A stretch of DNA of 43,688 bases from NCBI RefSeq assembly GCF_004010195.1, contig NC_057718.1:46954091-46997778 (forward strand), read 5' to 3'. This DNA comes from Chiloscyllium plagiosum. Lineage: Eukaryota. A model generated the notes under the pieces. The model ran no database searches, had not been told where the DNA came from, and was given only the letters and a program-made list of their open reading frames with translations. The translations under genes and the position numbers were made by a program. Below, piece by piece: positions 9,442-11,883 of the stretch (its first letter is position 1; every line of letters starts with the position of its first letter).

Positions 9442-9678
9442 TTAATTAATTTTACTCTCTGAATTTCCACCTGTACAGTAAGAATATGCTTTACCCAGAA
9501 CTATTCTGTCTCTGAGTAGTTTAAAAAAAGCATAATAATTACTGAAGAGAATTAATGCCAAAGATATTGTTTGGTGCCATTTTTCTGAACATATCAATGA
9601 GTACAACTGATAGACTATGATGACTCCTTCAATAACGATAAGAATGTTTAAGATCCTCAATGGTTTATTGAAGAAAAA
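9442..9678 (-). CDS. TMEM39B: TMEM39B terminal coding exon (78 aa + TAA)
   Basis: Acceptor tgtttgatctctttgcag|, phase 0. The translation [67 protein letters not shown]... matches my recollection of the vertebrate TMEM39B C-terminus ([35 protein letters not shown]) better than TMEM39A. Confidence 0.9.
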
Positions 9679-9974
9679 CTGCAAAGAGATCAAACAAACA
9701 TCAGAATTTGTCTAGAATTAGCACAAGGAATGTACAATAATGCTTACTTTCATGAGTCATTAAAAATTACGATTTGATTTGCTGCTACTGGAAATAAACA
9801 GTGGGTGAAGCAGGAACAGTGGAGAGAGATGGAGGCAAAATCTGAAGTCAATCAGAACTGAGAAATGACAGAAAAATAAAAGATTTTGAACAAGTGAAAG
9901 GTCGTGCAGGATGGGGAGAACAAAAGGCAAGGTCTGTAATAAAATAGAGAGCAGAGAGATTCAATGACAAAAAG

Positions 9975-10685
9975 TTTTATAAGGCCATTAAAAGCAGGAG
10001 CAGAAGTAGACCATTCAACAAGATCATGGCGAGAATGACGAGAACGAGGGTAGGTCCGATCAAGGACAGTAGTGGGAGACTGTGTATTGAGTCGGGAGAG
10101 GTCTTGAATGAGAGGGACCGTATTGTTGAAGAGGAGAGTGTGAAACGGACTGGTAAGCTAGAAGAGATACTTGTTAGGAAGGAAGATGTGTTGGACATTT
10201 TGAACAACTTGAGGATAGACAAGTCCCCGGGCCTGACGGGATATATCCTAGGATTATGTGGGAAGCAAGAGAGGAAATTGCAGAACAGTTGGCAGTGATC
10301 TTTTTGTCTTCACTGTCAACGGGGGTGGTACCAGAGGACTGGAGAGTGGCAAATGTTGTGCCCCTGTTCAAAAAAGGGAATAGGGATAACCCCGGGAATT
10401 ACAGGCCAGTTAGTCTTACTTCGGTGGTAGGCAAAGTAATGGAAAGGGTACTGAGAGATAGGATTTATGAGTATCTGGAAAGACACTGCTTGATTAAGGA
10501 CAGCCAGCACGGATTTGTGAAGGGGAGGTCTTGCCTTACAAGTCTTATTGAATTCATCGAGGAGGTGACCAAGCATGTGGAAGAGGGTAGAGCAGTGGAT
10601 GTAGTGTACATGGAATTTAGTAAGGCATTTGATAAGGTTCCCCATGGTAGGCTGATGCGGAAAGTCAGGAGGCATGGGAGAGAGG
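9975..10685 (+). mobile_element. Young CR1 LINE ORF2 (RT N-terminal half), truncated by the gap
   Basis: Motifs DKSPG, VPEDWRVANVVPLFKKGNRDNPGNYRPVSLTSVVGK, SQHGFVKGRSCLTSLIEF and FSKAFDKVPH. Confidence 0.93.
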
Positions 10686-11033
10686 NNNNNNNNNNNNNNN
10701 NNNNNNNNNNNNNNNNNNNNNNNNNNNNNNNNNNNNNNNNNNNNNNNNNNNNNNNNNNNNNNNNNNNNNNNNNNNNNNNNNNNNNNNNNNNNNNNNNNNN
10801 NNNNNNNNNNNNNNNNNNNNNNNNNNNNNNNNNNNNNNNNNNNNNNNNNNNNNNNNNNNNNNNNNNNNNNNNNNNNNNNNNNNNNNNNNNNNNNNNNNNN
10901 NNNNNNNNNNNNNNNNNNNNNNNNNNNNNNNNNNNNNNNNNNNNNNNNNNNNNNNNNNNNNNNNNNNNNNNNNNNNNNNNNNNNNNNNNNNNNNNNNNNN
11001 NNNNNNNNNNNNNNNNNNNNNNNNNNNNNNNNN
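10686..11033. other. Scaffold gap (348 N)
   Basis: A run of N flanked on both sides by plus-strand CR1 ORF2 sequence. Confidence 0.99.
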
Positions 11034-11535
11034 AGTTAGGAAGGCAAATGCAATGTTAAACATTCATTTCAAGAGCACTAGAATACAAAAGCAGAATGTA
11101 TTGCTGAGACTGTAGAAGGCTCCGGTCAGACCACATTTGGAATATTTAAGCAGTTTTGGGTCCCACATCTAAGGAAGGACGTGCTGGCATTGAACAGGCC
11201 TGGATACAGCGGACGTGGAGAAGATGCAGGAGAGACTAGAACCAGAAGGTACAACGTCAGAGTGAAGAGACAATCCTTTAGAACTGAGATGAGAAAAATT
11301 CTTTCAGCCCACGGGTAGTTAATCTGTGAAACTCATTCCCGCAGATGGCAGTAGAGGTTAAGTCATTGAGTGCATTTAAGACAGAGATAGATGGATACTT
11401 CTTAACTAAGGGATCAAAATTTATGGAAGGCGGCAGGAGAACAGGGTTGAGAAACATATCTGCCATGATTGAATGATGAAGCAGACTCTGAGCCAAATAA
11501 CCTAATTATGCTCTTATATCTTCTGATTTTATGAT
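11034..11535 (+). mobile_element. Older CR1 3' end on the right side of the gap
   Basis: Motifs KANAMLTFISRALEYKS and RPHLEY, with deletions and frameshifts. The CR1 tail reads CCATGATTGAATG...CCTAATTATGCTCTTATATCTT. Confidence 0.85.
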
Positions 11536-11777
11536 TAAGACAGAGAAAAATATACTTAAATTTTCACATTTAAAATTTAGGTCAAATATACTTTACTTGA
11601 TGAAAGAAATGTAAGTATTAGTCAGATCACAACACCCAGTATTTAAATAAACGAATGACGAGAGAGCATGGACGATTATATCATTCATCAGCTTCTTTAT
11701 CAAATGACAAAACATATCTATCTAGCTTGACAAATATTAATAATTTAACAATCCTCCACCTACAAATCATAACTTAC

Positions 11778-11883
11778 CTGTGCAGATGCATTGAGAAGTC
11801 CAGATGATGTCCCCTCAGGCTCTGGGTAAGTTATTTCAACACCAAACTCAAATCCCAATGGAAGATAACCAGTCATGAAAAAA
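11778..11883 (-). CDS. FLVCR1: FLVCR1 exon 7 (106 nt), the last FLVCR1 exon found in the window
   Basis: Acceptor ttatattttcag|, translation (G)[35 protein letters not shown], donor CAG|GTAAGT. Exons 1-7 total 1299 nt (433 codons), so the exon ends in phase 0. Confidence 0.95.

Follow-up and report, generated by a model that had tools for sequence, protein, structure and literature searches.

The joining of FLVCR1 and TMEM39B exons in this DNA is very likely an assembly artefact, in which LINE repeats led to the wrong placement of a ~17.4-kb TMEM39B piece and 7.1 kb appears twice in error. FLVCR1 (514 amino acids [aa]) and TMEM39B (489 aa) would then be two ordinary separate genes in the animal. 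The window, by which we mean the whole analyzed stretch of 43,688 nucleotides (nt), corresponds to G000:C9:46954091-46997778 in a genome of 3.56 Gb in 101,977 pieces, and protein comparison placed its proteins closest to those of carpet sharks. FLVCR1 is an MFS choline/ethanolamine (heme) transporter (PF07690); TMEM39B belongs to the Tmp39 family (PF10271).

Exon arrangement within the window

Seven FLVCR1 exons and the terminal exon of TMEM39B were found in the window, all on the minus strand. FLVCR1 coding exon 1 (window 33927..34553; 209 codons) is followed by exons 2 (23795..23939), 3 (21897..22034), 4 (20847..20914), 5 (19957..20060), 6 (16149..16259), and 7 (11778..11883), all with AG/GT ends; together they sum to 433.0 codons, with exon 7 ending at codon 433 in phase 0. 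The terminal coding exon of TMEM39B (9442..9678) has an AG acceptor, is in phase 0, and holds 78 codons plus TAA. It lies 2,099 nt from the exon-7 donor, across the sole gap of the window, a 348-N scaffold gap (10686..11033) that is likely a false join. Neither FLVCR1 exons 8 to 10 (tblastn) nor upstream TMEM39B exons were found within the window. On remeasurement, then, the earlier note was right that 433 codons of FLVCR1 exons 1 to 7 precede a phase-0, 78-aa TMEM39B end, and that the remaining exons of both genes are missing from the window. It had also described two hydrophobic TMEM39B segments, of which one is strong (Kyte-Doolittle 19-mer of 2.25) and the second peaks at only 1.46.

The phase match between the two genes is unremarkable because 8 of the 16 introns of FLVCR1 and TMEM39B taken together are phase 0. 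The match is thus no better than chance, and we estimate that a shared strand combined with phase 0 is a ~1-in-4 event.

FLVCR1 is complete on C9

A genome search with P0001, a 514-aa shark FLVCR1, and tblastn on the flanks recovered exons 8 to 10 on C9, 17 to 26 kb to the left of the window and on the same strand as exons 1 to 7. Exon 8 (C9:46937454-343), exon 9 (C9:46930174-119), and exon 10 (C9:46928501-424) are intact, ordered, and downstream of a second copy of exons 6 (G000:C9:46945006-46944896) and 7 (G000:C9:46940630-46940525). In this left copy, intron 7 measures 3,070 nt and runs gap-free into exon 8. Loss of FLVCR1 exons 8 to 10 was rejected on the presence of these exons on C9.

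When joined, exons 1 to 10 encode 514 aa, identical at 512/514 positions to P0202, 511/514 to P0208, and 492/514 to P0001. P0210 is identical at 514/514 positions; since it possibly derives from the annotation of this very genome, it was not counted as independent. Over its full length the protein is closest to named FLVCR1 orthologues (P0001, P0213, P0208, and P0202; 492 to 512 of 514 residues identical), and by this closeness the gene is FLVCR1 rather than FLVCR2. Across its first exon, a paralogue located on C12 is 65% similar to P0001. Like known FLVCR1, the gene has 10 coding exons, 514 aa, and a vasohibin-family gene downstream, here at C9:46.78-46.89 Mb; in human, the gene that follows FLVCR1 is presumably VASH2. 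The protein is no different from known FLVCR1, and the shark assembly alone repeats exons 6 and 7 and interrupts intron 7.

Three 412-aa proteins bearing the names of two shark genera (P0201, P0203, and P0206) show FLVCR1 stopping after exon 6 and share one short alternative last exon; this exon can be read here in FLVCR1 intron 6 at about window 13945-13900 on the minus strand. A contig of 4,324 nt in X17 (RNA by guess) spans intron 6 from 11855 rightwards with a word depth of 156. This short form is possibly either a real truncated isoform without the last helices or a retained intron.

A near-identical block ends at gap edges

The second copies of exons 6 and 7 lie in a 7,105-bp block (window 11034..18138) that is repeated at G000:C9:46939781-46946885. 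The two copies differ by six substitutions and no indels over 7,105 bp (99.916% identical). The window copy has its first base directly after the 348-N gap, and the left copy stops in a T/G homopolymer run, its last base directly adjoining a 500-N gap. Left-copy sequence is free of N from 46903622 to 46946885. Separating the copies are 18,238 positions, made up of 500 N, 4,732 bp, 1,973 N, the 10,685 bp at the start of the window, and 348 N. Near-identical copies ending at contig or gap edges are the mark of a false duplication, and from this pattern the exon 6-7 repeat is likely one. One of the six difference sites, 11536, fell within the stretch examined in sequencing data; X17 held only the left copy's letter there and X1 held both, which fits alleles without proving them.

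TMEM39B is scattered over three sequences

A Tmp39 family search of the genome returned 14 matches. Besides the window exon, they comprise several exons on C29, a single exon on C95302, and a full paralogue on C12. The C12 member, complete there, we take to be TMEM39A. Coding exons 1 to 3 and 7 of TMEM39B are on the plus strand of C29, the penultimate exon (exon 7) at G000:C29:47809267-47809387; exons 4 and 5 are on the minus strand of C29, within a block of 21,000 bp (G000:C29:47785915-47806914). Exon 6 stands alone on a 15,040-bp contig (G000:C95302:1217-1404), and exon 8 is the terminal exon of the window, the only copy found in the genome. Joined, exons 1 to 8 encode 489 aa, of which 484/489 are identical to P0214. 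The earlier note had proposed locating FLVCR1 exons 8 to 10 and the other TMEM39B exons in this assembly, and both sets were thus found, the former on C9 and the latter on C29 and C95302.

The window exon scores on positions 357-422 of 422 of the Pfam Tmp39 model. Its best single-copy match is P0122, a protein named TMEM39B (99%), and the paralogous C12 exon is 71% alike; closeness to TMEM39B orthologues assigns the terminal exon to TMEM39B. The 3' UTR (window 9331..9441, minus strand) has its poly(A) site at 9331-9334, with ATTAAA ~20 nt upstream. At ~110 nt this UTR is very short, and its poly(A) site was seen in X21 reads and an X18 contig.

The C29 locus is itself scrambled, with an inverted block and a 25,180-N gap. 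The block with exons 4 and 5 is exactly 21,000 bp, lies between 500-N gaps, and restores the exon order when flipped. The probable home of the contig with exon 6 is close to the 500-N gap at C29:47806915. The stretch C29 47807415-47883414, also between 500-N gaps, is exactly 76,000 bp, and a third block is 44,444 bp; such round sizes look like software cuts at bin edges.

Like known TMEM39B, the gene has 8 coding exons, 489 aa, and a CCDC28-family gene ~0.36 Mb off on C29; unlike it, the gene here is split over three sequences, with two exons inverted in the assembly. A CCDC28 search gave two matches on C29 and two on C9; the C9 pair, at 9.77 Mb, is 37 Mb distant from the window. In human, CCDC28B is presumably near TMEM39B, and the CCDC28-family neighbor on C29 lends weak support to the placement of the TMEM39B locus. 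A genome search for Qua1 (KHDRBS-type), an expected TMEM39B neighbor, gave four matches, none of them on C29. When the fused neighbor models P0142, P0156, P0190, P0121, and P0182 were compared by tblastn with C95302, 144 kb of C9, and 200 kb of C29, TMEM39B exons were the only matches. One of these models, P0121 (a 923-aa fish protein labelled low quality), contains TMEM39B sequence twice in tandem, which is probably another assembly or annotation artefact.

Both genes are spliced normally in transcript contigs

Window 9290-9960 and window 8600-12600 were examined in four runs each. The contigs of X17 (organism A), X15, and X18 (organism C) were considered RNA by guess, and their spliced ends argue that they are; X15 and X18 come from other organism labels. 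Behind the acceptor at 9678, the loose ends in both records that have them (X17 and X18) are the last 30 bases of the penultimate TMEM39B exon on C29 (30/30 and 29/30), and the FLVCR1 exon-7 end is not among these letters. Before the donor at 11778, loose ends in X17 and X15 reproduce the opening 30 bases of exon 8 of FLVCR1 (30/30; from the 24 of 634 loose-end rows listed), and loose letters behind 11884 match the end of FLVCR1 exon 6. The contigs thus carry the normal junctions of both genes, and the RNA junction from FLVCR1 exon 7 to the TMEM39B exon that the earlier note had suggested searching for was not seen: no joint from 9678 to 11778 appears among the 15 of 31 joints listed for window 8600-12600, and the four runs over window 9290-9960 gave no joints, with the limit that transcript contigs drop rare variants and would miss rare junctions. 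Raw RNA reads in X21 include 31 over the TMEM39B exon, with poly(A) at 9332-9334 and a depth of only ~2 at the acceptor, too thin to show the junction there; X22 gave no reads on this stretch. Pieces in X1, a record of unclear kind, also end at exon edges; none spans the 348-N gap, a hole that proves nothing.

Different LINE insertions flank the gap

To the left of the 348-N gap lies a fragment of a young, high-copy LINE (window 9990..10685, plus strand) with an open reverse-transcriptase stretch (RVT_1), and to its right the 3' part of an old, decayed LINE (window 11034..11480, plus strand) that sits within FLVCR1 intron 7 and continues gap-free in the left copy. Both are presumably CR1-like. 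The intron-7 LINE, followed into its true continuation, is 69% alike to the left-flank LINE over 141 bp. The longest open stretch is 169 aa in the left-flank LINE versus 76 to 78 aa in the intron-7 LINE, and summed contig depth in X1 is ~0.8 to 1.1 million at the left-flank LINE versus 3 to 25 thousand on the right flank. The two gap flanks are different LINE insertions. Since they share a strand and a broad repeat class, they could have misled a scaffolder.

Each flank of the gap has its true continuation elsewhere, as expected of a mis-join. On the right, the sequence resumes at C9:46939780 and leads to exon 8, and the exon of the left flank is spliced from C29. The FLVCR1 contig breaks inside intron 7, ending in the old LINE (window 11034), and the TMEM39B piece ends in the different, young, very high-copy LINE (window 10685). 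A second contig carries these 7,105 bp again, together with what is left of intron 7 and exons 8 to 10, and stands behind a 500-N spacer in the assembly. Repeat-derived links may have joined the two LINE-ended contigs across the 348-N gap. The contig with the real FLVCR1 3' end would then have been added when scaffolds were ordered at chromosome scale, its 7.1-kb overlap left unmerged.

The misplaced piece is bounded by gaps. Window 1..10685 likely comes from the C29 locus of TMEM39B; another piece, of 4,732 bp, lies on its left, and the two amount to 17,390 bp with the 1,973-N gap included. The exon of this piece was traced to C29 by its splicing, and the remainder likely belongs there with it. 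Behind TMEM39B exon 7 on C29, at a distance of 22 kb, the 25,180-N gap is large enough for the 17,390-bp piece, and its edge carries a comparable LINE with the expected orientation, though the likeness is just 91% over 433 bp. A search by overlap for the piece's slot on C29 gave repeat matches only, the best at 91 to 95%; as a guess from sequence, the 25,180-N gap might be this slot.

Alternatives to a mis-join

The arrangement could instead be genuine, a structural variant restricted to the sequenced animal or to its population, with the TMEM39B 3' end in FLVCR1 intron 7 and a 7.1-kb tandem duplication, and with other animals normal. The common strand and phase 0 of exon 7 and the TMEM39B exon would suit such a variant, and recombination could have been templated by the LINE copies on either side of the junction. 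Yet those two LINEs are only 69% alike, one end of each 7,105-bp copy falls exactly at a gap edge, and the C29 locus shows other scaffolding damage; moreover, a heterozygous carrier would keep a C29 allele with the exon, of which one copy was found, and the transcript contigs are normal. We consider such a variant very unlikely, and it is equally hard to credit that a private LINE-mediated insertion allele yields a choline/heme transporter of 511 aa that ends in TMEM39B sequence.

The earlier note had also raised a duplicated TMEM39B exon inside a long FLVCR1 intron 7. Such an orphan might serve as an alternative last exon, with an intact TMEM39B elsewhere. The exon does have a strong acceptor, phase 0, and its own poly(A) site. 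This idea fared poorly: the true intron 7 is 3,070 nt without a gap, and the C29 gene lacks a terminal exon and splices to the window exon itself. Protein, family, and DNA searches (the last with 40 of 379 candidates scored) found no second terminal exon in the parent gene or elsewhere, and the other listed DNA matches were the C12 paralogue (71 to 72%) and a ~60-bp repeat. An identical second exon could still hide in the 25-kb gap of C29, as a copy inside N would stay unseen by these searches. We regard an orphan exon as extremely improbable.

A species-wide fusion, in which FLVCR1 lost exons 8 to 10 and ends in a TMEM39B tail (the 511-aa chimera of the earlier note), has the in-window arrangement as its one argument and a negligible probability. 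The junction between exons 7 and 8 and the complete frame of 514 aa refute it, with exons 8 to 10 present and intact and both genes spliced normally. None of the 217 fetched proteins pairs the end of exon 7 with a TMEM39B tail, so the spurious chimeric gene models that had been predicted did not materialize among them; no listed match to the TMEM39B exon combines PF07690 with PF10271, and models from related sharks give FLVCR1 at 513 to 514 aa and TMEM39B at 485 to 489 aa. Read-through and rearrangement fusion genes are a known general class. The present case resembles them in placing in-frame, same-strand exons of two genes on assembled sequence and differs in having no junction transcript, no contiguous DNA, and both parents complete, the 3' part of the 5' partner being neither lost nor displaced.

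Implications for the assembly

A mis-join at the repeat-flanked gap, which the earlier note had considered the simpler explanation, is supported by both the FLVCR1 exons on C9 and the normal splicing of the two genes. Comparable errors in vertebrate assemblies are described by Rhie et al. (2021; PMC8081667): false duplications, often located where contigs end, that are mistaken for exon duplications, and, in a short-read assembly, mis-joins by the thousand, among them inversions and chimeric joins. The likeness extends to a near-identical block at contig ends, an exon-level false duplication, a chimeric join at repeat sequence, and a nearby inversion on C29; read coverage, Hi-C, and k-mer tests were used there, and here the reading comes from assembled sequence and transcript contigs. 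In the literature records as retrieved in part, FLVCR1 and TMEM39B were named together only in a breast-cancer signature (PMC11744720).

In this assembly exons 6 and 7 of FLVCR1 are likely repeated in error and the gene is interrupted by 17 kb of foreign sequence, a local error for curation. TMEM39B, split over C29, C95302, and C9, will look truncated or lost in comparative screens. Exon neighbors across LINE-flanked N gaps in this genome should be checked outside the window before being read as fusions. For two ordinary genes, there is no biological consequence.

Two further repeat features were observed. In the misplaced piece of the window, inverted and direct repeat copies at 5030-5166, 6070-6353, and 6514-6797 (93 to 100% over 137 to 285 bp) look like repeat-element fragments. 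On C29, a short LINE-derived unit is arrayed ~9 times head to tail at G000:C29:~47812430-47812740 (L023), just before a 133-N gap, and this nine-fold array may be a gap-filling artefact.
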